Source of the DNA: a bacterium UBP8_UBA817 | GTDB taxonomy: Bacteria; Margulisbacteria; Marinamargulisbacteria; SXXA01; SICP01 | Reading direction: 5' to 3' | Length of the DNA stretch: 64,000 bases | Assembly (NCBI GenBank): GCA_945898045.1 | Contig: CAMDGG010000004.1 | Span: forward strand, 6,422 to 70,421 | Part shown: one piece after another, positions 34,982-48,938 of the stretch | How positions within the stretch are numbered: the stretch's first letter is position 1 | How the letters are laid out: each line of letters starts with the position of its first letter | The notes under the pieces: model-generated | What the model saw: only the letters and a program-made list of their open reading frames with translations | What the model was told of the DNA's origin: nothing | Databases searched by the model: none | Position numbers and translations under genes: made by a program

Positions 34982-37462
34982 ATGCCTTTTATTTTACCGA
35001 CTACAGACTCTGTATCTCTCAATGCAAAAGACCAAGCGTCTCGAGAATTTGACTTGGGCCTACTCATGGTGCGCCGGAATCAAACATTGGAAGCCCTAGA
35101 ACGCTTTAAGCGTGTTATCGCCCTAGACCCCAAGCAATTACCTGATGTCTTAATCGTATTGTATAAGCGCTTAAATGCGCAATTTGGGTTGATGGGTTTG
35201 CGTTTACTCATTGCGGATTTGTATTTTCATTGCAAGCTGTATCCAGAAGCGTTACACGAGTTGGAAGAAGCGGTAGATATAGATGCAGATTATACGCAAT
35301 CGTATCTACTCCTGAGTAAACTTTACAAACATTTTCCTGACAAAAATGTGGTGCGCCCTCTCTTTGAAAAAGCGTTCGAAAAAGGGCTTCGAGATGCCGC
35401 TATTTTGGATCTTTTGCCTAAGCTTTATCTTGAAACAGGACACTATGAACAAGGCGTTTCGTTTTATGAGACATTGGTTTCAGAGCAACCTAGTAGCCAT
35501 CACTACAAAGCCCTACTTTCATTCTATTTCTATTCTGGACAGCATTTGGAAGCCGCTAAGATTTACGAAAAACTGTCTACGGAATCACCTGAAGAAATTG
35601 GCGTGATGGCCGAAAAATGTGAAGAATTGGTGGCGCTTAATCCTGAGAACGCCCAAATTCGTCGCATTTTAATCTCGATGTATATTAAAGGCTTTCATCC
35701 TTTAAAAGCTCTGAACCATTTGGAGCATTTAATACGACTCGGTCAGGTAGCGCGCGCAGAAGCGATTCAAGAATTGCGTGACATGCTGTCGTTGTTTCCA
35801 AATACCCATGATATTTTGCTGTATTTATCGGATTTACTCATCCAAGAAAACGCGTTTTCAGAGGCCGTTTCTTTGTTGCAATTGACCTCTGAACACGTAC
35901 TCAGCCCCGAAGAATTTATTCCAATTATTCGTCTTTTGAAACGGGTATTGAGTTTGTATCCCAATCAGATTATGGCGCTCCAACTCCTTTCTGACATTTC
36001 GTTTAAACAACATCATTATGCAGAAAGTTTGTCTTACATCACCTTGCTTTTGGTGGCAGAATCCTCGGAATTTCAGTTTATTGAAACGCGACTTTTAGCG
36101 TTGATGGATCAGGATCCCGACTTGGCATTGGATTGTCGTTTATGCCTTGCACGCGTGGCGTTTAAGAAAGGTGAATTTGCGCAATGTACGGTAGAGGCCA
36201 TGAGACTTAGACATACCAAGCATGATTTAGCTGCCACGTTTTTATTGTCGGAATTGGCGCTAGCGCAAGGCCAGCATCAAGACGCCTTATCACTTTTATT
36301 TACGGCCCTTGAGAGTCATTCTGAGTCTTGGGAATTACATGAACGGATTCAGGATTTACAAGATCAGCATGTTCAGGCCTCTTTAACGTCCCTCTCTGCG
36401 TCTCAACCCTCTGCTGACGGATTATTAAAGACAGGTATTTTGTATTTATACGTTGGAGATTTTTATAAGGCACTCGATCACTTCCAGAAAATTGGGTCGG
36501 GACATACACTTTTTACAGAAGCTCAGCTCTTAATTAGTCGATGCTTTTTAGAAATGGGTCGATACGATTTGTCGGTGAGCCAACTCACGCGTCTGTTACA
36601 AAGCCAGGGTGACCACTTACCGTTTCAAAATCGGGTTCGGTATTTGATGAGTATTAATTATTTACATATGGGTGATCTGTCCCAGGCCATGCATTATTTG
36701 GAAAAAATCATGGAATATGATGTTAATTTCCCGAATGTTCAATCTTTAATCGCACAGAAAAAAAATGAAAGCTTTTTGGATCTTCGTGGCCTCATGCTAG
36801 GCGCGTGCTTAGATACCCAAGAGTCGCTAGCCGTCTTTAGCATTCAAAATCTTGAAAACGAAACGTTTGCCCACTCCAATACACTCAGTTTTGCGCATCC
36901 GCATAATAATAATGGTGTCGCACATGTTCTAAAACGCAATTTAAAAACGGCTGAAGAAGAATTTAAATTGGCGCTACAAATGGATGATTCTCTCACGGCC
37001 ACGCATTGCAATTTGTCGGTACTCTATTTACTCAAACAAGAGTTCGAGCCGGCCATGTCACATCTTGCTCGGGCCTCTGAGCACGCGCGTAAATTGGACG
37101 CGATTGGCCTTACAAAAGGACTGGCCTATATGATGCAATCACAACCAGAAAAGGCTCTTGTACAGTTTGAAGCTGCTTACACACTCAACCCTCATAATCC
37201 ATTGGTCTTATTTAATTTAGGCGAATGGCATTATCGCAAACATCGACTCCAAGATGCGGTTCGCTATTGGCGTCAGGCATTGGCAACGGGTCATGTGTTT
37301 CATTTGCTGCATCGCAGATTACGATATTTAAGTTTAACACCCGAGACGCTTGCCCATTGGACAGAACTTTTCACATTATCGTTTATCCCTTACTTTTCAA
37401 CTCCCCTAGTAATCCATAAAAAAGTTGTCTCTCCGCCCACTTCTCTGACTTTATTTGAGTGA
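34982..37462 (+). CDS. Large TPR-repeat protein
   Basis: 826 aa with recurrent 34-residue A/L/Y-pattern helical repeats throughout. No catalytic motif seen. Confidence 0.65.
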   Translation: MPFILPTTDSVSLNAKDQASREFDLGLLMVRRNQTLEALERFKRVIALDPKQLPDVLIVLYKRLNAQFGLMGLRLLIADLYFHCKLYPEALHELEEAVDIDADYTQSYLLLSKLYKHFPDKNVVRPLFEKAFEKGLRDAAILDLLPKLYLETGHYEQGVSFYETLVSEQPSSHHYKALLSFYFYSGQHLEAAKIYEKLSTESPEEIGVMAEKCEELVALNPENAQIRRILISMYIKGFHPLKALNHLEHLIRLGQVARAEAIQELRDMLSLFPNTHDILLYLSDLLIQENAFSEAVSLLQLTSEHVLSPEEFIPIIRLLKRVLSLYPNQIMALQLLSDISFKQHHYAESLSYITLLLVAESSEFQFIETRLLALMDQDPDLALDCRLCLARVAFKKGEFAQCTVEAMRLRHTKHDLAATFLLSELALAQGQHQDALSLLFTALESHSESWELHERIQDLQDQHVQASLTSLSASQPSADGLLKTGILYLYVGDFYKALDHFQKIGSGHTLFTEAQLLISRCFLEMGRYDLSVSQLTRLLQSQGDHLPFQNRVRYLMSINYLHMGDLSQAMHYLEKIMEYDVNFPNVQSLIAQKKNESFLDLRGLMLGACLDTQESLAVFSIQNLENETFAHSNTLSFAHPHNNNGVAHVLKRNLKTAEEEFKLALQMDDSLTATHCNLSVLYLLKQEFEPAMSHLARASEHARKLDAIGLTKGLAYMMQSQPEKALVQFEAAYTLNPHNPLVLFNLGEWHYRKHRLQDAVRYWRQALATGHVFHLLHRRLRYLSLTPETLAHWTELFTLSFIPYFSTPLVIHKKVVSPPTSLTLFE

Positions 37463-39909
37463 TGATTACTGGACGTCTCAGTAGTTTTCTTTTAGTACTT
37501 ATACTAAGCACGTCTCTTCTTTCTGCCGAATCCAAAAAATACAAACTTCATTCAGATCAACTCTCCTATTCAGAAGATCATAAAATTATGATTGCATCTT
37601 CCAACGTGTTATTGAGCGTTGATGACATTAAGTTGAGCACTCCCAAATTATTCGTCAATGTAGAAGCGCAGCAAGCGTGGGGATCAGGCAATATTGTCTT
37701 AACGCGTGGATCAGATTCTGCGTTTGCATCTGGCATTCAGATTCAGCTTAAAACCTCTACATTTACATTGGAAGATTTCCGCACCCAAATGAAAATTCCA
37801 GACAGTAAAGACGTTATGTTTGTTCATACTAAAACACTTACCGACATGCCCAATCATCAGTCCGGCACGTATGCAGAAATGACGAGCTGCGACTTGTTAC
37901 ATCCCCATTATAAAATTAAAGCTAGGCAGTTTGATTACTTTCCTGGAGACCGAATTACGGGATCCGATGTGGTCTTGGATTATCCTGTTTTTTTTCTACC
38001 GCTTCAGGTCTGGGCACCTTTTTATACGTATGAGTTGGGCAAGCGGCATATTATTTGGAACTTCCCTACTATTGGACAAAAAAATACGCCCGGTTGGGGG
38101 TGGTTTATGCAAAACACAATTGATTATGATCATCTTAATGGCAAAGATTCCAGCGTACTTGTAGACTTTTTTCAATTCAAAGGCGTGGGGGTTGGTATCG
38201 ATCATCAGTATGATATTGGCAATGCAAACTATGGAACGGTATCTACGTACTATTTACGGGAACAAGATACGGGTCTTCAAAATTATCGTGTCGGCTTTCA
38301 GCAATCATATCGGCTCAATAACGTCTGGTCGGTATCAGGCGCCTATAATCTCATCGATGCAGAACGCATTAACTCTCGGGGACGTGATCATCGTGAAGAT
38401 CGGAGCGTAACCTTGGCTTACAATGATTTGGGAGATGTGATGAATCTTAAACTTTCAGATTCACAGAATTTCAAACAATTTACACGTGATTTTATGATAA
38501 ATTTGGACCGGTCATTTAATCAAGAAAAACAATACAGTATTTCGTACGTACTTAATGACAACTTTATTCTCCGCAATCAAACCGTTTCTTCCCGAGCCGA
38601 ACATATTTTACGTCTTCCTGATGACAATACACTGACCACTCGGCTCGCTTATGACAGCCGAGATTCTGAATTGGATACGGTACCTGCCGATACGCGTCTG
38701 CAAGCAACGACAGAATTTTTCCATCAATTTGATACCCGTCTTTCTGCCAAAGTTGTGATTGATCACTTATTTGACTTAGATGGCCGCCGCGTCACCACCG
38801 ATAGTTTTAGTAACGCCAATAACTTTTTTTTCAAACAACCCGAGATTACGTTAATGTATTCTGACCCTAGCCTGCATGGATTTTCTGCCAACAGCACGTT
38901 GATTATGGCCCGTTACCAAGAGGTGCAATATAACCGTTCTTTGAACGAACAAATTACGTTTCCGACGTCTTCTCAATTTGGATTGGAACCCAACACCTAC
39001 ATCTTTCGGCAAACGCTTGAAAGAAGCTTTGCAGGGTTACCCGGAAAAGGCACGCTTCATTTAAATGTTGGATATGAACAAATGATTTTCAAATCACCTG
39101 GTTTTGGGTTATTTGAAGGAGACGCACTTTACAAACTTTCTTTTGCACCCTCTTATACGGCTTCATTTTGGGACTTTCTTAAAACCACTACAACCTATCA
39201 ACGTCGATTTATTCCCCCCGAAAGTAACTCTCCGTTTATCACGGCGTTTAAAGATGATCGGCTTAATACTAATTTCTTAGACCAAGCGTTTACGCTATAT
39301 TATTTGGACAGTAACCGATTTTCTTGGGAAAACCGCATTGGATATGATTTTGAACGTAATCAATGGAATCCCTATATCACCACACTTATTTTGAAGCCGT
39401 CCTCTTTTTGGGGAGTCCGGATTGGAACTGGCGTAGATATCAATCGCTTAAATGCTTATTTATCGCATCGTGCTGTTGCATTTAAAGATGCGACTATTTT
39501 ACAACCCTTAACATGGACCCTAGATATAGCGCCTTCCAGCAACACGCGTTTTTCCATGAACCATTCACACGATTTAAACCAAGGATATATTCGCCAATCT
39601 AATCTTTTGTTTAAACATGTATTGGGAAGTGACAAGGATTATGAGTGGTCGTTTGAGACATTGTTCACGTATGATACACGGGGTAGGGTCCAACAGTTTG
39701 ACCCTAGCAAATATGCCGTTCAAACATTTAGTTTAGTCAAAAATGAGCACTGCCGAAAAATAAAAATCAGCTATAATAAGCAGATTCAAGAAATTCAACT
39801 CTTATTCACCATTAACGCTTTCCCGAATGACTCTTTTGGATTTACCAAAACACGGAATAACATAAAAATACAAGGTGCACTCGCTAATGATGCTCAAGAA
39901 CGCTTTTAG
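37459..39909 (+). CDS. LptD/OstA-like outer-membrane beta-barrel protein
   Basis: Signal peptide. OstA_N-like beta-jellyroll start (KLHSDQLSYSEDHKIMIASSNVLLS..GNIVLTRG). Long alternating beta-strand region. C-terminal aromatic residue (..QERF). Located between lptF/G and lnt. Confidence 0.55.
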   Translation: MMITGRLSSFLLVLILSTSLLSAESKKYKLHSDQLSYSEDHKIMIASSNVLLSVDDIKLSTPKLFVNVEAQQAWGSGNIVLTRGSDSAFASGIQIQLKTSTFTLEDFRTQMKIPDSKDVMFVHTKTLTDMPNHQSGTYAEMTSCDLLHPHYKIKARQFDYFPGDRITGSDVVLDYPVFFLPLQVWAPFYTYELGKRHIIWNFPTIGQKNTPGWGWFMQNTIDYDHLNGKDSSVLVDFFQFKGVGVGIDHQYDIGNANYGTVSTYYLREQDTGLQNYRVGFQQSYRLNNVWSVSGAYNLIDAERINSRGRDHREDRSVTLAYNDLGDVMNLKLSDSQNFKQFTRDFMINLDRSFNQEKQYSISYVLNDNFILRNQTVSSRAEHILRLPDDNTLTTRLAYDSRDSELDTVPADTRLQATTEFFHQFDTRLSAKVVIDHLFDLDGRRVTTDSFSNANNFFFKQPEITLMYSDPSLHGFSANSTLIMARYQEVQYNRSLNEQITFPTSSQFGLEPNTYIFRQTLERSFAGLPGKGTLHLNVGYEQMIFKSPGFGLFEGDALYKLSFAPSYTASFWDFLKTTTTYQRRFIPPESNSPFITAFKDDRLNTNFLDQAFTLYYLDSNRFSWENRIGYDFERNQWNPYITTLILKPSSFWGVRIGTGVDINRLNAYLSHRAVAFKDATILQPLTWTLDIAPSSNTRFSMNHSHDLNQGYIRQSNLLFKHVLGSDKDYEWSFETLFTYDTRGRVQQFDPSKYAVQTFSLVKNEHCRKIKISYNKQIQEIQLLFTINAFPNDSFGFTKTRNNIKIQGALANDAQERF

Positions 39910-40600
39910 GCTTATCGTACTTGGAAGTTTTCTTCTGAGTATGGGGTGTGCCAGAACAGTTGAAGAAAAAAATAAAGTCTTGGATTTCAATGTGCGCCTT
40001 ACGTTTGCAGGTCCCGTTAATCTTACAAACTTTCGTTATTATGTCATCCTATCCCCAATGCCTATTTCTATACCTGCTATTGTACCTAGTCGATATTTTC
40101 CCACACCTGGAGAAACGCCTGGATTCGAGACTTCATTCGACGTCAATAACATAGAAATTATTAACAATAATGGGATCAATTTTTATTATCGAAGTTTTTT
40201 CTCAACCTGGTCTGACTATATTGCCATCGGACCTGGTTTAATTGCACGCCACTACCCTTCTGGCTCGACAACTTTTGATGCCACCACCACCAATAATGCT
40301 CGATATCAGACCAATATTAATTTTGTCCCCATACTATCCAATAGCCCAAGCAATACCCTCAACTTACGATTTCCCATTCAATCTCTTTCTCCGGAATTTG
40401 AGCGCATCTATTTTAAATTTGTCATCGTCAAAAGAACAGATTCTTCGCTCACTGGCTATGTTCAAGATGGTTTAGATGATTTTTCTTTACCTATCGAAGC
40501 AAAATCAGGCACTATCATTGGCCGAGGAATACCTCACGCGCCTTCAGGGAGCCCTGAACCAGCCGCTTGGTTAGAATCTTGGGAGATTACCATATTTTAG
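39887..40600 (+). CDS. Lipoprotein of unknown function
   Basis: MMLKNAFRLIVLGSFLLSMGC: signal peptide with lipobox LSMGC. No recognisable domain. Confidence 0.5.
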   Translation: MMLKNAFRLIVLGSFLLSMGCARTVEEKNKVLDFNVRLTFAGPVNLTNFRYYVILSPMPISIPAIVPSRYFPTPGETPGFETSFDVNNIEIINNNGINFYYRSFFSTWSDYIAIGPGLIARHYPSGSTTFDATTTNNARYQTNINFVPILSNSPSNTLNLRFPIQSLSPEFERIYFKFVIVKRTDSSLTGYVQDGLDDFSLPIEAKSGTIIGRGIPHAPSGSPEPAAWLESWEITIF

Positions 40601-42036
40601 GCGCACTCATTTCGGCCCTTTTATATAGTTTGACCTTTCCGCCGTTTAATTTTCATTGGCTTGTATTTGTTGCATTGGTGCCGTTGATTTGGGTAGTCTC
40701 TCGGCCTCAATCTTTAAAGAAACAGTTTCTAAACGGTTTCATTTTCGGCACAATCGTCATGGGTATTTTTCATGGCTGGCTATTTTCATTGACCCCCTTC
40801 GCACCACTTTGGGGACTACTGATTTTATGGAGTGTGGTCTCTGTTTATTACGGCCTCTTTTATGGTGCGGGCATGTGGGTTTTTGGGTGGCTGAAACCGT
40901 ATTGCCCTAGAATAATTTTATTGCCGGCAGTATGGATCGTTTTTGAATGGTTACGTGCGTTAGGACCTTTTGGGAATACAGCAGCCAGTGCGGGTTACAC
41001 CATGACAACGTTTCCACATTTATTGCACTTGGCATCTGTTGGTGGGCTGTATGGATTGTCGTTTTTTGTGGTGCTTGCGAATGTTGTTTTTATCTCTCTA
41101 TTCAAAAGAGAAGGACGATGGGGATTTGGTTTACTTCTACTGTTAGTCATAGCTTCCTTCACACTTTTCAATTCCCCTGAAAAGAAATCTTTAAAGCCGA
41201 TCTCTGTCGCCATTATTCAAGGTAATCATGACCAATCCATGAAGTTTTCTTTTGGACGTTTTCGAGAGATTCGAGATAGCTATCTGGATCTGTCACGTAC
41301 TAGTAAGCATGCTGACGTCATCATCTGGCCAGAAACCATCACGCCCCAATTTAATTTAGATAACGCCCTATTTTTAGATTCTGTTCGAGATATAGCCCAA
41401 ACGCAACACAACCTCATTTTATTAGGCACGCCCTACTTAGATCATTCGCATTTTTACAATGCCTTAGCCGCTGTTGGCTATCATGATACGGAGCCCTTGG
41501 TTTACCACAAGTATCGATTAATGCCCTTTGGCGAATATTGGCCGCTACGTTCTGTTCTCATAAAGGCCTCTTTGGGCAGCATTCTTCCCCAAGAAGATTT
41601 TACGCCAGCCAGTTCTAGCCGTGTCTTGAAAACCGCAGACTACACCATTGCCAACGCCATTTGCCTGGAATCTATTTATCCATGGTATGTCCGAAAACAA
41701 GTGTTAGAGGGTGGACAATGGATCACCGTTGTTGCCAATCACGCCTGGTATTTTAACTCGTCAGCCGCCGCCAAACATCTTCAGATGGGACAACTACGCG
41801 CTGTTGAGAATCATCGTTATTTGGCACAAGCATCCAATATGGGGATTTCGGCTATAATTGATCCAAATGGACATATACAAAAACAAACGAAACTTAATAG
41901 CGCGGCCGTTTTGCAAGATGTAATTTATGTGGGATTGCCCCTCAGTTTTTATACGCGATTTGGAGATTGGATTGTGTGGGTGTCGGGGGGATGTCTATTA
42001 CTCTCTTTTTTGCGACGCCTTAAAACCCCACTTTAA
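40567..42036 (+). CDS. lnt: Apolipoprotein N-acyltransferase
   Basis: Multi-TM N-terminal half. CN-hydrolase triad context (IIWPET, YHKYRLMPFGEY, ICLESIY). Confidence 0.88.
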   Translation: MVRILGDYHILGALISALLYSLTFPPFNFHWLVFVALVPLIWVVSRPQSLKKQFLNGFIFGTIVMGIFHGWLFSLTPFAPLWGLLILWSVVSVYYGLFYGAGMWVFGWLKPYCPRIILLPAVWIVFEWLRALGPFGNTAASAGYTMTTFPHLLHLASVGGLYGLSFFVVLANVVFISLFKREGRWGFGLLLLLVIASFTLFNSPEKKSLKPISVAIIQGNHDQSMKFSFGRFREIRDSYLDLSRTSKHADVIIWPETITPQFNLDNALFLDSVRDIAQTQHNLILLGTPYLDHSHFYNALAAVGYHDTEPLVYHKYRLMPFGEYWPLRSVLIKASLGSILPQEDFTPASSSRVLKTADYTIANAICLESIYPWYVRKQVLEGGQWITVVANHAWYFNSSAAAKHLQMGQLRAVENHRYLAQASNMGISAIIDPNGHIQKQTKLNSAAVLQDVIYVGLPLSFYTRFGDWIVWVSGGCLLLSFLRRLKTPL

Positions 42037-42051
42037 AGTGGGGTTTATTTT
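42023..42051 (+). terminator. Rho-independent terminator overlapping the lnt stop
   Basis: AAACCCCACTTT/AAAGTGGGGTTT perfect inverted repeat followed by ATTTTA. Confidence 0.7.
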
Positions 42052-42323
42052 AATACTTTCTTTGGTATGATAAGTACATATGGAGAATTTACATCACTCG
42101 CTTGAATCTAAAATAGTAGATCGCAATTAGTCACAGCTCCCTTTGGCACTGTTTCCAAAAAAATCCCAAAACAATTTCTGTTCATACCGAAGACCATAAA
42201 AACTGGAAAGTCTCTCCCCACCACCTCTCCAAAATTCAAACGGCTCGTTGAAATTTCGGAACTAACTTACGTCGTGCGCCTTTAAAATTGAAACCCTTTT
42301 TGAAATAAGGTACCATTGCAAAC

Positions 42324-43151
42324 ATGAGCGCACTTCCTTCTATTAGAAACATTGCTTTGATCGTTCTCTTTATTTTGGTGATGTATTTTTTTAACAATCA
42401 AGCAGGATCAAAATTAAATAGCAAAGGCTTCTCTTTTGATAATGGTTCTGGGTTAGTCACTATCGCACCAGCAACGGATGGCACTCCACGCATACAGGCG
42501 CTAACGGCACTCATGACGCCTAGCGGTGTTATTATAGATGAGAATATCCCTACAGAATCCCTCATATTTTTAGCCACGCCTAACATGACCACAAAGTTAA
42601 CCGCTCGAATGCTCGGCGTTGTTTCCGCCTTTGCTTATATTCCTCCCGCGTCATCAGGTTGGCTGGTGTGTGATGGAACAGCCTATTCCAGAACAACCTA
42701 TGCAAATTTATTCAGTAAAATTAAAACAGTATACGGAAACACGGATGGCACGAACTTTAAAGTGCCTGACCTACGCGGTCTATTTATTATGGGCACGATA
42801 GAAGGAGGTACTGCAGTAGGCCTAAAAAACACATCAACCGCGTTTCAATCCCATACTCATGCCCTTTCAGCTGGTTCCAGTGTTAGCTCAGGCGGAGGCC
42901 CACACACACATACCTATCATAACAACTTAGGCAACAAGTCTCAGATCGATGACGACAGCACAGACGTCTTGGGATATGAATATTTTACTAATGCGACAGT
43001 TACCACTACACAGCCATCTGGTGCCCATGCTCATACATTGGATTTGCTTACGCCCAACCTGAGTGATTCCGCACTAAATGCAACAGAATCCACCCTTGAA
43101 AATAGACCCATCAATGCAGCAGTCATTTATTGTATTTATGCAAATCCATGA
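42324..43151 (+). CDS. Phage tail-collar domain protein 1 (membrane-anchored or secreted)
   Basis: N-terminal hydrophobic anchor. Collar motif AYIPPASSGWLVCDGTAYSRTTYANLFSKI...FKVPDLRGLFIMG. His-rich HTH/HAH strings. Confidence 0.8.
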   Translation: MSALPSIRNIALIVLFILVMYFFNNQAGSKLNSKGFSFDNGSGLVTIAPATDGTPRIQALTALMTPSGVIIDENIPTESLIFLATPNMTTKLTARMLGVVSAFAYIPPASSGWLVCDGTAYSRTTYANLFSKIKTVYGNTDGTNFKVPDLRGLFIMGTIEGGTAVGLKNTSTAFQSHTHALSAGSSVSSGGGPHTHTYHNNLGNKSQIDDDSTDVLGYEYFTNATVTTTQPSGAHAHTLDLLTPNLSDSALNATESTLENRPINAAVIYCIYANP

Positions 43152-44098
43152 GGATATCCATGCCCCATCTACTTAAGATTACGCTATTAATAATCATTCT
43201 AATATCCTCTCAAGCTTTTTCCGAAGAGGCTTATTTAATAGAAAATGAAATTTCTTTTTCAAATGGCTCTACCATAACACAAGTTACAAAAAACACGCTT
43301 ATTCCTACGCCAAACGCCTCTCCTACGGTTCCGGATAATGCGTCTCAAATCATGAAATTACATGGTCAGTTACTTTTACACAACGGGTTGCTGATTGATA
43401 ACTCCTTTGTAAAAGCAAAAGCGTTTCTTGATTCTTGTGTAGGTATGATTTCGGCTTTTGCATCTACAACTGTTCCCTATGGATGGCTTTTATGTGACGG
43501 GGAGACCTACACAACAACTTCAAATTGTGAATTACAAGCTTTAGGAGATGCGATTCGTACTAATTGGGGAGGCACTGGCACCTATACCTCAGGTCATTTT
43601 GTTGGAAAATTCAAGGTCCCCGACCTAAGGGGCATGTTTTTACGAGGGGCTGACTCTATGAATGTAGATGCGAGTGGTCAGCCTAATGGAGTTGCACCTT
43701 CTGGAACAGACCCTGAAGCGCGTTTTGTCGACTCTACATTTTCTGTGAGCAGCACTAAAAAAGTGGGCTCCTATCAACCCGATTCTTTTATTCAACATGG
43801 TAGCACTCATCTACTTTCTTTAAGTACTTACAGTACAAATCATACCCATAATATTGCAAATATTCCGGGTCTATTCGTAAGTCATCAACAAGACTACGAT
43901 GCAGATGAGGATGAACATATTGCCTGGTTCAGAAGTGATGAGAATGGGAACCCCTTTGAGACCGACACCAGTTCCACTATTCATAGACACATTGTAACAC
44001 TTCCCAATAACAGTACGCTTACAAATACTAGTACTACCAATTCTGATACAACTTCACACCCCAAAAATTATGCGGTTGTATATGGCATTCGGTTTTAG
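43148..44098 (+). CDS. Phage tail-collar domain protein 2 (secreted)
   Basis: ATGA overlap with gene 1. Signal peptide ..LLIIILISSQAFS. PYGWLLCDGETY...FKVPDLRGMFLRG. NHTHNI and IHRHIV strings. Confidence 0.8.
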   Translation: MRISMPHLLKITLLIIILISSQAFSEEAYLIENEISFSNGSTITQVTKNTLIPTPNASPTVPDNASQIMKLHGQLLLHNGLLIDNSFVKAKAFLDSCVGMISAFASTTVPYGWLLCDGETYTTTSNCELQALGDAIRTNWGGTGTYTSGHFVGKFKVPDLRGMFLRGADSMNVDASGQPNGVAPSGTDPEARFVDSTFSVSSTKKVGSYQPDSFIQHGSTHLLSLSTYSTNHTHNIANIPGLFVSHQQDYDADEDEHIAWFRSDENGNPFETDTSSTIHRHIVTLPNNSTLTNTSTTNSDTTSHPKNYAVVYGIRF

Positions 44099-44112
44099 GA
44101 GCAAGAGATAAA

Positions 44113-44865
44113 ATGATAAAGAATTTTTGCACAGTTTTCTTATATGTTTTTATATTAATTTCAGGGATAAATTATACTGAAACTTATTTTCAAAAAAATC
44201 AACTTCACTTTGATAGCGGGAAAACAGGATTCATACCCTCAACACCCAATCTGACTTCTTCTGCTACTAAAACCGTAGGGGGTCTGGCGCTTGAAAACGG
44301 TATCATTATTTCTGGCCAGTTACGCACGCTACTAGATTATGTCACTCCTTTTGTGGGAGCCATCATGCCGTTTGCAGTCACTAACAATGCAAACATACCA
44401 GAAGGATGGATCCCTTGTGACGGCAGAGAGCTCAGAATCAGCACCTATCCCACACTGTATAAAGCAATAGGTACAACATGGGGAACAGCAAGCAATCCGA
44501 GCCTTCTCTTTAAAGTGCCCAATTTATACGATTATTTTATTCAAGGGACTAGTAGTACAAGAGCACTCGCTTCCTCACAAACGAGTGCTATTGCTAAGCA
44601 TGGGCACACCATTTCAGGAACAGCCCAACTTGTCCTCTCCTCTCATTCACATGGTATTTTTCCGTCGGGTCATCTCCCATTACCGACATTGATTGAGGGA
44701 CCAGATGATAACGGGTACATTAAGCATGATGTTGACCCTATTGTAGATTCAGGCTCCACCGATGATACACATACACATACGATAGAGGTTGCATCTGCAG
44801 GGGGCACCGAAATGCTTCCTAAACGGATGTATCTTAGCTATTGCATCAAAGCTACGCCTTTTTAG
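44113..44865 (+). CDS. Phage tail-collar domain protein 3 (secreted, divergent)
   Basis: Signal/anchor. PEGWIPCDGRELRISTYPTLYKAIGTTWG...FKVPNLYDYFIQG (the DLRG motif has degenerated to NLYD). HGH, HSH and HTHTI strings. Confidence 0.75.
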   Translation: MIKNFCTVFLYVFILISGINYTETYFQKNQLHFDSGKTGFIPSTPNLTSSATKTVGGLALENGIIISGQLRTLLDYVTPFVGAIMPFAVTNNANIPEGWIPCDGRELRISTYPTLYKAIGTTWGTASNPSLLFKVPNLYDYFIQGTSSTRALASSQTSAIAKHGHTISGTAQLVLSSHSHGIFPSGHLPLPTLIEGPDDNGYIKHDVDPIVDSGSTDDTHTHTIEVASAGGTEMLPKRMYLSYCIKATPF

Positions 44866-45803
44866 CTTTGGTTTCTCGTGCAGTCACCCCCTATAGGATC
44901 TCGATATTTATAGTTAAAGTCGTATACATATTCTCTGTAGGGTTTTTAGGTGTCTACCGTATCACTAACACTAGTTGGAATACAGGTATTTGGTGGGATG
45001 CGCATCTAAAAATGATGGGGGAGTATTCTGCTATCACCTATCTTTTTTCACTTTCTGCACTTAAATGGAATCTTATCGTCCTTATTCCTGTTATTGAGAT
45101 TTCTACCTTTTTATTACTTAGAAAACATGGCTTCGCTAAACATCATTTGTATCTATTGTTTTTTTACCACCTTTTTATTTTTCTTATTCTTACTCCCAGG
45201 AACGCTCCCCTGGCTCTTTACTGGACTCCTTTTTTGCAAATGACTTGTTTATTATTTTTTCTCCCTAAGAGCACGGTTCTCTTTGTTAAAAGAGGAATCT
45301 CAAAATCCTTATTATCTACAATTTTTTCTTCACCTCCTCCGTATAAACCTCAGATTTTAATCCCCTCGTTACTCATCTTTGTCATAGTGCAATGCAGTCT
45401 ACCGCTATGGCCTTATTTATTTTTTCATGAAGATATTAATTGGACCCTTAAAGGAACTCATTTTGCCTGGCGCATGAAAATCAATTCAATCAATCACGAT
45501 GCCACTCTAGTCGTTCTAAATAAAAAGACAAGGGAACAAATTAGTTACAATATAGCTCAAATAAATTTTCGCCCCAATGTCAGCAAATATTCCCCTTATG
45601 CACTTATTTATTATGCACATGCGCTAAAAGACTCTTATGCTAAAGAAGGACAAGATGTTGCTATCTATGCAAACGCATTTGCGTCTTTAAATTCTCGACC
45701 TTATTATCGGTATATTGATCCAACTGTGGACCTCAGCATGACGTCCTATCATTTTACAAAATCCAATTCTTTTATTATACCGAGACCCACTCATGATGAT
45801 TAA
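44841..45803 (+). CDS. Membrane protein with a VKGC-type lumenal domain and only a degenerate/short HTTM part
   Basis: LPLWPYLFFHEDINWTLKGTHFAWRMKINS..IYANAFASLNSRPYYRYIDPTVDL parallels human gamma-glutamyl carboxylase LPYSHFLTQGYNNWT..YSWDMMVHS..WVSINDRFQQRIFDPRVDI. The N-terminal TM region keeps only a weak KHHLYLLFF (NNHxYL-like) string. Confidence 0.6.
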   Translation: MHQSYAFLALVSRAVTPYRISIFIVKVVYIFSVGFLGVYRITNTSWNTGIWWDAHLKMMGEYSAITYLFSLSALKWNLIVLIPVIEISTFLLLRKHGFAKHHLYLLFFYHLFIFLILTPRNAPLALYWTPFLQMTCLLFFLPKSTVLFVKRGISKSLLSTIFSSPPPYKPQILIPSLLIFVIVQCSLPLWPYLFFHEDINWTLKGTHFAWRMKINSINHDATLVVLNKKTREQISYNIAQINFRPNVSKYSPYALIYYAHALKDSYAKEGQDVAIYANAFASLNSRPYYRYIDPTVDLSMTSYHFTKSNSFIIPRPTHDD

Positions 45804-46842
45804 ACAGCGGGCCATCGCTTTTTTATATAATTCAATGGATGCATCTTCCCTTGCTTTGTTTCGTATAGGGTTTGGGATTATTCATCTAATATGGACATGG
45901 AAATATTTCTCTTCAAACCTCTTTTATTTTCAGTATGTATACCCCTCCATCTTACTCCCCTACCCCTGCATGGAATGGTTACCAAGGCTACCAGGTTATG
46001 GCATGTATCTTCCATATCTTGTGGTGTTCATCTGTTCTCTTGGTATTACTTTGGGATTGTTTTTTAGACTAAGTGCCATCGGCTTTTTTATTAGTTATCT
46101 TTATATTTTTTCATTAGATTTCACAGGATACAATAATCATTTCTATCTCGTCGTTCTTTTAGCGTTCTGGCTCATCTTTATGAACGCGCATACAACAATG
46201 TCCATGGATCGATATCTAGGTCGCATAGAGAACTTTAACCACATTCCTTTTTGGAATATTTGGATAATCAGATTTCAGTTAATTATTGTCTACTTTTTTG
46301 GTGGTTTTGCAAAAGCAATGAATATCGATTGGTGGTTACACGCATCCCAACTCAACAACATGCTTTCCTCATTTTATGGTAATTCAATTTTATATTTTCT
46401 ATCCCATACTTATACTGCATATTTTCTAGCATGGTCTAGTATGATATTTGATTTAGGAATTGGAGGACTCCTCTTTTTCAAAAAAACACGTGGGATTGGG
46501 GTTTGTCTCATCATTGGATTTCATGCATTTAATTATTTCATACTATTTTCACCCTATACCGGAAAAACAAGCATAGGCATTTTCCCTTTCCTGGGTATTC
46601 TTACAGGACTCATGTTTCTAGAACCTAACTTTCCTAGACAATGGTTTACAAAACTTTCTACTTGGGTTGAATCAAGTTTAGAAACAGATACTGTGAGTCA
46701 ATCACGTGTACAAACTATTTTTTCAATTGTAGTTTGCATAGTAATAGGGAGCCTACTGGTTATTCTCCCTATCGCTGCTTGGCTAACCCACACCGCGCTG
46801 CCTTTTACATGGATAAATGCCACTTTAATACCCAAAAACTAA
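45793..46842 (+). CDS. HTTM-domain protein (vitamin-K-dependent gamma-carboxylase-like membrane core) lacking the lumenal domain
   Basis: LALFRIGFG, YNNHFYLVVLLAFWLIFMNAHTTMSMD, HIPFWNIWIIRFQLIIVYFFGGFAKAMNIDWW parallel VKGC [66 protein letters not shown]. Confidence 0.8.
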   Translation: MMIKQRAIAFLYNSMDASSLALFRIGFGIIHLIWTWKYFSSNLFYFQYVYPSILLPYPCMEWLPRLPGYGMYLPYLVVFICSLGITLGLFFRLSAIGFFISYLYIFSLDFTGYNNHFYLVVLLAFWLIFMNAHTTMSMDRYLGRIENFNHIPFWNIWIIRFQLIIVYFFGGFAKAMNIDWWLHASQLNNMLSSFYGNSILYFLSHTYTAYFLAWSSMIFDLGIGGLLFFKKTRGIGVCLIIGFHAFNYFILFSPYTGKTSIGIFPFLGILTGLMFLEPNFPRQWFTKLSTWVESSLETDTVSQSRVQTIFSIVVCIVIGSLLVILPIAAWLTHTALPFTWINATLIPKN

Positions 46843-46844
46843 GT

Positions 46845-48938
46845 TTATTTGTCGGCAGGCTCTACGCGTAGATATCCACCACTTACTACATCAGCATATT
46901 CTGTATTTGTCGCTGCATAATACACAGGATCTTCTAATGCTCCCTGCAGTGTCCTTGCATCATATAGCTCTGATTCCTGATATAGCTGTGATTCCTGCAT
47001 AGCAATATCATAAGTTGGATTAGAAACTGGGACGACTTTTTTAAGTGGCGTAGGCAATAGGTAAGGGTTATCACCTTGCTGACCAGGTCTAGCTGACGTT
47101 GGAAGTGCTGGTGGGCCATTATCGCCAATTTCTTCATAATGACTATCATCTTCGCGCATAATATAGACTGGATTTTCAATAGGTTTTAAGGGCCTCCCAC
47201 CCTCAAGTTCTCTAGGACTTTGGTTACGTATTGTATTTGTACGATGGGTCACTTTTGCGGCAATCACCAAAAGCACTAAAATAATGATGCCGACCCCAAC
47301 AACAAGTAACAAATAGGGTAGAGAAAGCACACCCCTGCTACCTGAACTAGATGAATTTTCAGCGTCCGTGCCATTTGTGATTTGCTGTAACGCTGATGAT
47401 GTGATCCCAACTACAACACTAGTAACTGTAGTTAACAAACTACCATTAGAAATAGGAAAAAAACTAGAGGAAAGAGTGGGCGTGATTGCTTTTGATGTAC
47501 TGGTTGGACGAGAGGTTGATGACGTGTCTGTGGGTTGCGTTATAGTCGGTAAGGGAGCTGCTGTCACTGCAGGAACTTCCTCGCCATGTGAGATTGCTTC
47601 TACCAAATTAACAAATTGACTTTTAACTCCTTCAACAGTGTCTGAAAATGCGATATTAATGGCTCTTTTTGTGGGGTCTTCTGGAATAATCATCACTAAA
47701 TTATTAGTAGCCGGAGCCCCTAAATTATCGGCTTCGTTTTGGACAAAGGAGGATGTTCCTAATTGACTTCCTACAATTTTAACACCCTTAAACATACTCA
47801 CTGTTACATTTCCGCCTTGTGCTAAAAGTACTTTTAGCTGGTCTATGGGGATTAATGTCACAGATTCTTCCAATAGAGAATATGCACCCAGCGGAACCAT
47901 GTCTGCTCTTGTGATAGGGGAATAACGATAATTTACATTAACATCCTCGCCTATCATCGTTCCAAACCCATCGGGCCCATGTAGAACAAGCTTTGAATTT
48001 ACGTTACACAGTCCATTTGGGGTATTATCTAAAAATGTCACTTGATCTAAACCTGGCTGACCTACTAACAACGTGCTATCAGAATACGAAGGCCCCAGAT
48101 TCAAAACACCTAATGCTGTACCAGCCTGGGATCCATTGGCCAATTTAAATACAGTTGATCCGGTTAAATCGCTTGAAAGATTACAAACATCTTGTGTTCC
48201 CAGTTGAAATAAGCGATGTTCTCCAGAAGACAAAGACCCAAGTTTACTCTGAGGGATAAAGACCACTGCACTTTTTGCTGGCACTCCAAGATAGACCCCA
48301 TTACTATAAGCTGCACTCTTAATTGAAAGTGGAGACTCGCAATCGATTGAAACACCTGTATCCGTTAGATTACCTACGGCATTAAAAACTCTTAATCGAC
48401 TATCATTTTCTATCATACAAGTTAGGCCGCTATTTCCGGCATCAGATCGGAACCACCGCAATTTAGTTCCGGTAATAGATGTAGGCTGAGGTGTAGATAC
48501 ACCGTTATATTCCATTGAATAAATATGATCAAGGCCATCCGCAACATTATGCAGAACTAAATATACAGGCTTACTAGAACCTCCTAGCTTTACATCTTCA
48601 ATTTGAAACCCACTTGGCATAGGAATCGTCCAAACTACGCGCTGACCTGTCTTATCAGCTAAATTTGTGCTTACAAACAAGGTGTCTCTTTGCGGATTTG
48701 AATGAAAAAAAGCACCGGTCTTTATTCCTACTAGCTGTCCTGGGTTTTGTGGATCAGGGAGAGAGCTTGCAGCATCTTTTCTTCCTACAGCAATGGTGCC
48801 GACAGGCCCCTCAAAAACTATTTGTGCAGCCCTTAATTGATCCAGATACACTGTTACAGAACTTGTTATATTTGGATAGCTATCCCCTGCCCCACGCCTT
48901 TCTATCACATGTGGCTGTATAGAAATTACTTTTTTCAT
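46845..48938 (-). CDS. 697-aa single-pass protein with receptor-like architecture and a tyrosine-motif tail, function unknown
   Basis: No N-terminal signal. Ser/Thr/Pro stalk. One TM (~47253-47321). 134-aa C-terminal tail (46848-47249) with NPVY, HYEEI, NPYL, NPTY, EDPVYYA, TEYADV. Has its own promoter. Confidence 0.7.
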   Translation of the reverse strand: MKKVISIQPHVIERRGAGDSYPNITSSVTVYLDQLRAAQIVFEGPVGTIAVGRKDAASSLPDPQNPGQLVGIKTGAFFHSNPQRDTLFVSTNLADKTGQRVVWTIPMPSGFQIEDVKLGGSSKPVYLVLHNVADGLDHIYSMEYNGVSTPQPTSITGTKLRWFRSDAGNSGLTCMIENDSRLRVFNAVGNLTDTGVSIDCESPLSIKSAAYSNGVYLGVPAKSAVVFIPQSKLGSLSSGEHRLFQLGTQDVCNLSSDLTGSTVFKLANGSQAGTALGVLNLGPSYSDSTLLVGQPGLDQVTFLDNTPNGLCNVNSKLVLHGPDGFGTMIGEDVNVNYRYSPITRADMVPLGAYSLLEESVTLIPIDQLKVLLAQGGNVTVSMFKGVKIVGSQLGTSSFVQNEADNLGAPATNNLVMIIPEDPTKRAINIAFSDTVEGVKSQFVNLVEAISHGEEVPAVTAAPLPTITQPTDTSSTSRPTSTSKAITPTLSSSFFPISNGSLLTTVTSVVVGITSSALQQITNGTDAENSSSSGSRGVLSLPYLLLVVGVGIIILVLLVIAAKVTHRTNTIRNQSPRELEGGRPLKPIENPVYIMREDDSHYEEIGDNGPPALPTSARPGQQGDNPYLLPTPLKKVVPVSNPTYDIAMQESQLYQESELYDARTLQGALEDPVYYAATNTEYADVVSGGYLRVEPADK

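Follow-up and report, generated by a model that had tools for sequence, protein, structure and literature searches.

The 64,000-nt stretch of DNA analysed here (the window; contig CAMDGG010000004.1 of assembly GCA_945898045.1) belongs to a 1.24-Mb metagenome-assembled genome (MAG) of an uncultured freshwater Margulisbacterium, which is 84% complete and is labelled G000 below. A cassette of five genes lies at 42324-46842 of the window and encodes three predicted exported relatives of phage receptor-binding tips, together with two complementary fragments related to the vitamin K-dependent γ-carboxylase (VKGC). The genes, all on the plus strand, are col1 (42324..43151; 275 aa; identified from the open reading frame list, Pfam and motifs), col2 (43148..44098; 316 aa if read from ATG 43148, with the longest open reading frame starting at TTG 43130), col3 (44113..44865; 250 aa), gene 4 (44841..45803; 320 aa; start codon uncertain) and gene 5 (45793..46842; 349 aa). 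The ATG at 43148 overlaps the stop codon of col1 as ATGA, a 14-nt gap separates col2 from col3, col3 and gene 4 overlap by 25 nt provided that gene 4 starts at TTG 44841, and gene 4 and gene 5 overlap by 11 nt. The upstream gene lnt ends in an intrinsic-terminator-like hairpin (42023..42046, plus strand; a 10-pair stem followed by a T run), and a 287-nt spacer (42037-42323) lies between this terminator and col1. The first-pass annotation of the window had described five tightly packed same-strand genes after a strong terminator and about 290 nt of intergenic DNA, with the four junctions given above; this was confirmed, and the open reading frame list reproduced the genes at the same positions. 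Contigs from three other freshwater metagenomes span the col3/gene 4, gene 4/gene 5 and gene 5/downstream junctions with zero differences, and these identical junctions rule out an assembly artefact. The packing of the five genes suggests that they are co-transcribed.

The products of genes 1-3 matched the Collar family (PF07484) with 58.3, 44.3 and 56.6 bits, respectively, well above the gathering cut-off of 24, and all three begin with Sec-type hydrophobic N-termini, so that both the tail-collar identity and the N-terminal signal or anchor proposed for them in the first-pass annotation held. Col1 has an N-terminal hydrophobic signal or anchor, an FSFDNGSG strand, a Collar domain at aa 109-155 (nt 42648-42788), His-x-His (HxH) sites at 42852-42860, 42903-42911 and 43026-43034, and a C-terminal NRPINAAVIYCI strand. 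Col2 has a signal peptide that ends in AFS before EE, followed by ISFSNGST, GWLLCDG and FKVPDLRG, with HTH at 43841-43849 and HRH at 43982-43990. Col3 has a signal peptide, LHFDSGKT, GWIPCDG and a degenerate FKVPNLYD that marks genes of the third position, with HGH, HSH and HTH at 44599-44607, 44644-44652 and 44770-44778, respectively. Every motif quoted earlier for these proteins (FSFDNGSG, ISFSNGST, LHFDSGKTG, GWLxCDG...FKVPDLRG, NLYD in the third copy, HTHTY, NHTHNI and HTHTI) was found. An alignment of 17 cassette-type collars (A1) displayed a common plan, consisting of a Sec-type hydrophobic N-terminus, an F.F.NGSGW strand, an L.NG..D strand, the collar consensus GWL.CDG ... F.VPDLRG.FLRG, a head in which as many as three HxH motifs are in register, and a final E.RP.N.AV.Y.I.Y strand. 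The adjacent lnt prompted the idea that the collars are lipoproteins, which was rejected because a lipobox Cys is missing from all three signals.

The collar profile matched the receptor-binding domain of T4 gp12 (1OCY, residues 11-195) over its whole length with E=2e-17. This alignment takes in YHKHA and ETRPWN..NYIIK, and the first HxH of the profile aligns with the YHKHA metal site of gp12; the HxH motifs of the collar head are predicted metal sites. The same profile matched the gp37 tip (2XGF) with E=1e-5. PHROG matches of the collars were to the C-terminal tips of tail fibres, phage matches by tblastn covered only residues ~96-273 (to the end) at 30-40% identity, and Foldseek searches with the AlphaFold2 model of Col1 placed gp12, a cyanophage fibre and gp37 at the top ranks. 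Judged from sequence, genes 1-3 are exported paralogues of the phage gp12/gp37 receptor-binding tip, with a short shaft, a collar and a head. They do not have the features of a virion-attached protein: their N-termini are of the Sec type, and the flanks hold lnt and flagellar genes with no phage context.

In a maximum-likelihood tree of the collars, col1, col2 and col3 fell into separate positional clades, which covered the window, genomes G002/G003, G023/G032 and G036. Support was 97/98 and 84/75 for col1, 81/87 for col2, and 95/83 and 93/90 for col3. Because the positional clades span two families (f1 and f13), the triplication is older than the split between them, and the gene order has been kept since. 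The positions also carry their own signatures in A1: PDLR[ND][FY] replaces PDLRG at the third position, HxxxH occurs at the first metal site at the second position, and the C-terminal tails differ by position. Three consecutive PF07484 proteins of the virophage DSLV2 co-purify 1:1:1 and assemble as fibres ~16 nm long (PMC12724248, J Virol 2025). A 505-aa protein, P0125, contains three consecutive collar-plus-head modules in one chain, a natural pseudo-trimer; its record is named for the lichen fungus Letrouitia subvulpina, and the protein could be fungal or come from a bacterial contaminant. A heterotrimer is well motivated by the positional clades and signatures, the DSLV2 precedent and the three-module chain, and Col1, Col2 and Col3 would most likely co-assemble 1:1:1 as a heterotrimeric fibre tip outside the cytoplasmic membrane.

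Genes 4 and 5 had been described as two VKGC/HTTM homologues. Both are indeed related to VKGC, but Pfam revealed complementary fragments and not two HTTM proteins. Gene 5 matched only HTTM (PF05090; 204 bits, residues 12-279), and gene 4 matched only the VKGC lumenal domain (PF22777; 90 bits, aa 172-316, nt 45354-45788) with no HTTM match. The product of gene 5 matched human GGCX with E=1e-34, and its YNNH His116 (nt 46138-46140) and GGFAK Lys174 (nt 46312-46314) were invariant in an alignment of cassette and outgroup HTTM proteins. We take these residues to be the equivalents of His160 and the catalytic base Lys218 of human VKGC, an assignment supported by the alignment register. Gene 5 ends directly after the core and has no lumenal domain of its own, while relatives continue into one (444-458 aa); truncated relatives of 348-354 aa were also present. 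Gene 4 lacks approximately the first 125 residues of the HTTM fold and retains the later transmembrane helices and the lumenal (periplasmic) domain. The space of its missing N-terminus is occupied by col3, and a relative on contig L054 starts at the same point. The 16 best Protein Data Bank matches of the AlphaFold2 model of gene 4 were all human GGCX. Gene 4 belongs to a clade of Margulis-specific HTTM paralogues in which the His and Lys motifs are absent throughout, and by this sequence criterion it is a catalytically dead VKGC paralogue. In relatives both HTTM genes are full length (444-458 aa), and the complementary truncations are found in this genus. The active-type paralogue retained YNNH and GGxAK in f1 and f13 at only 27-35% overall identity. 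The lumenal domain of human VKGC holds the substrate. Because the genome has a single catalytic core and a single lumenal domain, each on its own protein, we argue that genes 4 and 5 act as a heterodimer. The possibility that genes 4 and 5 are pseudogenes was rejected on the basis of ratios of nonsynonymous to synonymous substitution (dN/dS) of 0.13-0.30 and the same truncations in relatives.

A survey of 146 genomes of the phylum detected HTTM in 14 and Collar in 20. A collar triplet directly upstream of HTTM genes was found in at least six genomes, belonging to three families of one class of Margulisbacteria, which is Marinamargulisbacteria-like. Besides the window, where the cassette is flanked by lnt and an orphan gene, it occurs in G002 and G003 (family f1, with an rpoN flank in G002), in G023 (f13, with a murG flank), on contig C36 of G036 (f13) and in G027 (family f17, with a flank of thyA with SLT-TPR). 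In G032 (f13) contig ends break the cassette, and a col3 fragment precedes the HTTM pair. In the recurrent cassettes the collar and HTTM genes either overlap or lie no more than 20 nt apart, and G002, G003 and G027 carry the two HTTM genes in the opposite order. Two metagenome contigs of the same genus carry lnt-col1-col2-col3-gene 4. The cassette stays together through changed flanks and rearrangements, which indicates selection for linkage. In the G027 cassette (L034:10142-12384), both HTTM genes are shortened, to ~391 and ~368 aa; they have long branches, and their placement in the tree is unsure.

The HTTM profile recovered 80 genome loci, 78 of them outside the Margulis lineage (~1 Mb of flanking sequence for the set). 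None of the 78 HTTM loci from other phyla had a collar within 8 kb. Nor did a collar lie beside any of the three closest HTTM proteins from outside the lineage, and a scan of the viral contigs of IMG/VR yielded no HTTM. The recurrence expected from the coupling that the first-pass annotation proposed was therefore seen within the class, in at least six genomes, but not beyond it. A scan of JGI metagenomes with col3 orthologues returned only an identical copy. Cassette copies were located at contig ends in G024:C178, G036:C252, G032:C38 and C88, and G001:C34 (G001 being a genome of the same genus as the MAG), which fits assembly breaks at a strain-variable locus.

Comparison with a relative from another sample gave dN/dS values of 0.11, 0.24 and 0.16 for col1, col2 and col3, respectively; gene 5 had 0.13, and gene 4, taken as two halves, had 0.23-0.30. 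Purifying selection acts on all five genes, none of which is a pseudogene. Synonymous divergence (dS) was 0.14-0.40 in four genes upstream of the cassette. It reached 0.9-3.4 in the collars, where it is saturated; gene 4 had 0.7-1.0, and gene 5 and the downstream orphan each had 0.84. Protein identity fell from 90-97% outside the island to 60-79% inside it. The rise in synonymous divergence, 3- to 10-fold, was placed exactly at the lnt/col1 boundary when window positions 34982-46842 were compared with L053, L054 and L055. The strains are near-identical apart from a single hyper-diverged island, which comprises the collars, the HTTM pair and the orphan. This island resembles an allelic replacement, or a haplotype that diverged long ago, in strains that are close elsewhere, and the pattern is typical of loci under outside selection. 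Its strong variation between strains suggests contact between the product and external partners, for example cells, particles, phages or grazers.

The downstream gene (46845..48938, minus strand) is convergent to the cassette and encodes a 697-aa orphan single-pass membrane protein with an S/T-rich stalk, a transmembrane helix and a PVSNPTYD...YD..TL.G cytoplasmic tail. Its amino acid identity with the relative was 62% which, together with its dS, resembles the cassette and differs from lnt. Orphan-type proteins at L032:12600-17085 and L031:3-1943 were compared, and these features were common to the 774-, 673- and 647-aa proteins that follow the G002/G003 cassettes (hhalign probability 94.7%, E=6e-8); no anchored protein of this type was found beside the G023 or G027 cassettes. 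The 697-aa orphan has relatives outside its genus and probably belongs to the same variable island. Upstream of col1, the 287-nt spacer and the terminator are missing in the same-genus contigs L053 and L054, in which the lnt stop is ~15 nt from the col1 start. The spacer had no Rfam match at threshold and no second copy in the genome, and a spacer RNA or repeat was dropped on these grounds. A sigma-54 promoter, an idea drawn from the rpoN gene that precedes the G002 cassette, was rejected as well, since the TGGCAC of the spacer has, by eye, no correctly spaced GC.

The closest named homologues of Lnt belong to Candidatus Margulisiibacteriota and Marinamargulisbacteria, and the sequencing runs that hold the locus are from lake and other freshwater metagenomes. 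The presence of lnt led us to take the cell as diderm. With respect to a VKGC-type cofactor, the MenA equivalog was present in 10 of the 14 HTTM-bearing genomes, including G001. The MAG has two UbiA-family genes, encoding heme O synthase and an LA_0991-like protein; the latter, a UbiA-fold protein at G000:C10:21836-22897, scored below the cut-off of the LA_0991 family, whose name comes from a Leptospira locus tag. The heme O synthase gene points to O2 use in this genome, and the use of menaquinone and O2 is plausible for the lineage judging from these genes.

These results can be combined in a model in which the exported heterotrimeric fibre tip is bound in the periplasm by a split, VKGC-like heterodimer that modifies the tip, docks it, or does both; we regard this model as having about an even chance of being correct. 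The three position-specific collars would be exported and then co-assembled 1:1:1 outside the cytoplasmic membrane. Gene 5 would provide the catalytic HTTM core and gene 4 the periplasmic lumenal domain, and the pair would work as a unit. The heterodimer would bind the exported collars on the periplasmic face, and would then modify them through carboxylase-type chemistry that depends on menaquinone and O2, dock and assemble them, or do both. The enzyme-substrate idea fits the topology, in that export would bring the collars to the periplasmic side of the membrane, the side on which a VKGC-type active site lies. The first-pass annotation had suggested that the HTTM pair modifies or matures the collar proteins; this topology and the catalytic Lys and His of gene 5 agree with the suggestion, but the collars have no Gla-like region, the G027 pair lacks the Lys, and one collar triplet occurs with no HTTM nearby. 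A narrower version, in which a menaquinone-dependent split VKGC covalently modifies the exported, phage-derived heterotrimeric tip and gives a strain-variable envelope or surface structure, is a tentative proposal and an unlikely one at present.

Several observations weigh against the model. Sequence inspection of the collars found no Glu-rich Gla-like region and no VKGC propeptide; they have no Glu cluster after F.F.NGSGW, and only a single semi-conserved Glu lies close to where the mature protein begins. None of the operon genes encodes an outer-membrane export route by which the tip might reach the surface. The AlphaFold2 monomer of Col1 had a mean predicted local distance difference test score of 65, and its confident parts were limited to the N-terminal helix, the collar and the final strand; the head was disordered in the model, as would be expected if it is intertwined in a trimer. 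Neither HTTM gene of G027 has the catalytic Lys. A second signal-peptide collar triplet is located at G000:C3:87190-89679 (L025:9173-11679, minus strand); two of its genes group with both collar genes of G024 and are without the third HxH, and the gene that overlaps it on the upstream side encodes a soluble orphan of 621 aa, which has no Pfam match and was rejected as a hidden HTTM. G087 has collars but no HTTM, and HTTM without collars was found in six genomes of the class, including G007, G012, G022, G044 and G052; since cassette copies repeatedly end contigs, the counts of collars without HTTM are upper bounds. MenA, UbiA, MqnP and VKOR were not found in the 84%-complete MAG, the lack of MenA and of VKOR being the relevant points here. 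None of the RNA runs searched holds the locus.

Part of this evidence would also fit a pair that acts as scaffold only, that is, a non-catalytic membrane dock or chaperone that tethers or assembles the fibre with no covalent chemistry. One paralogue of the pair is always catalytically dead, and both are so in G027 as far as the Lys is concerned; gene 4 has kept the lumenal domain, which is the substrate-binding part in VKGC, and the collars offer no Gla-like region. Against a pure scaffold stand the conservation of YNNH and GGxAK in the active-type paralogue of f1 and f13 at such low overall identity, the dN/dS of gene 5, and the fact that the genus kept the catalytic core while deleting the lumenal domain of that same core. 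On balance we judge this explanation to be unlikely.

The collars and the HTTM proteins might also be mere neighbours in a variable envelope island with no direct interaction, the HTTM pair acting on the S/T-rich protein, a lipid or a small molecule. Collar triplets without HTTM and HTTM without collars in the same class, the absence of collars near all 78 HTTM loci of other phyla, and the anchored orphans with a common tail motif that also flank the cassette in f1 are in line with this, and bacterial HTTM proteins can use non-protein substrates, for example MloH in malonomycin synthesis (cited in bioRxiv 10.64898/2026.08.19.745780). The adjacency of collar and HTTM genes, with overlaps or gaps of at most 20 nt, nevertheless persists in three families despite the changed flanks and the swap in HTTM order, and the anchored proteins were not found beside the G023 and G027 cassettes. 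We consider an absence of interaction to be rather improbable.

An anti-phage or anti-grazer decoy, in which an exported tip mimic masks the cell's own receptor or binds incoming particles and the HTTM pair is accessory, would draw on the homology of the module to phage receptor-binding tips and on the hyper-divergence of the island between near-identical strains, as an arms race predicts. No PADLOC defence model was matched, however, there are no phage or mobile-element genes beside the cassette, and three position-specific paralogues have been retained over a long divergence, which makes a decoy very unlikely. A prophage or defence island was rejected on the same lack of a PADLOC match and on the housekeeping genes in the flanks. 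SdpB is, we presume, an HTTM-family protein, and the B. subtilis control genome matched PF05090. A toxin system like SdpABC, in which SdpA and SdpB are needed to process secreted SdpC (PMC6818787) and which likewise pairs an HTTM protein with signal-peptide proteins as a source of a killing factor, is highly improbable, because the five proteins and their neighbours include no SdpA-like protein, hydrophobic C-terminal toxin segment or immunity/regulator pair, and the collars end in the conserved collar β-strand.

The model of a fibre tip bound by a split VKGC-like pair can be compared with several known systems. As in DSLV2, three consecutive same-strand PF07484 genes show positional orthology and encode a gp37/gp12-like collar-plus-head, a 1:1:1 fibre having been shown biochemically for DSLV2 alone (PMC12724248). 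Unlike those of DSLV2, the genes are cellular, have a Sec-type N-terminus instead of a capsid-attachment end, and are linked to HTTM, which was absent from the viral contigs searched. With T4 gp12 and gp37 (1OCY, 2XGF) the proteins share the collar, a C-terminal strand that returns to it, and an HxH motif in alignment with the metal site of gp12. In T4 one gene gives a homotrimer carried on a long shaft (PMC12724248), whereas the cassette encodes three paralogues that are short (250-316 aa), carry signal peptides and have no baseplate.

Like animal VKGC, the HTTM pair has an HTTM core with the putative His160/Lys218 equivalents (gene 5) and a lumenal domain (gene 4), and signal-peptide proteins are the candidate clients. 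The animal enzyme is a single polypeptide, whereas here there are two complementary fragments, one of them a dead paralogue; the candidate substrates lack a propeptide and a Gla-type Glu cluster, and the MAG yielded no VKOR. In B. subtilis SdpABC/YitPOM, an HTTM-family membrane protein is also co-encoded with a secreted protein, and dependence of maturation on it is known for Sdp. That system differs from the cassette, which has no SdpA homologue, toxin peptide or immunity genes, and in which the putative substrate is a trimeric fibre and not a small hydrophobic peptide. A bacterial HTTM with a separate DUF5819 partner builds the VKGC fold from two chains (bioRxiv 10.64898/2026.08.19.745780). 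The extracytoplasmic part is on a separate protein in both cases, but in the cassette the partner is a degenerate HTTM paralogue that bears a canonical lumenal domain, and fibre proteins are encoded in the same operon.

The component families were already known, and a heterotrimer encoded by three genes has been described for a virus. New here are a fibre tip in cellular form with signal peptides, the conserved link between this tip and a VKGC pair of one active and one dead member, and the complementary truncation of the HTTM pair in this genus. The literature searched has no paper that mentions both tail-collar and HTTM, in keeping with the first-pass annotation, to which no such system was known. 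VKGC homologues are common in bacteria, and we know of no protein substrate for any of them; in the searched literature no protein substrate of a bacterial VKGC homologue was described, and the cases were indirect (SdpB) or concerned small molecules (MloH). The cassette may be a new protein-maturation system. Should the link between collars and HTTM be false, the locus would still be a clear hypervariable envelope island in an uncultured phylum. The phage receptor-binding module, whose three-gene heterotrimer has until now been demonstrated only in a virophage, has here been domesticated with export signals by a free-living bacterium with a small genome. The HTTM pair is a natural split-enzyme experiment, with the catalytic core in one gene and the substrate-binding domain in a dead paralogue. 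The cassette thus supplies a concrete candidate substrate for a bacterial VKGC homologue, and covalent modification of the collars, if true, would be the first case of a protein substrate for a prokaryotic VKGC homologue, as far as we know.

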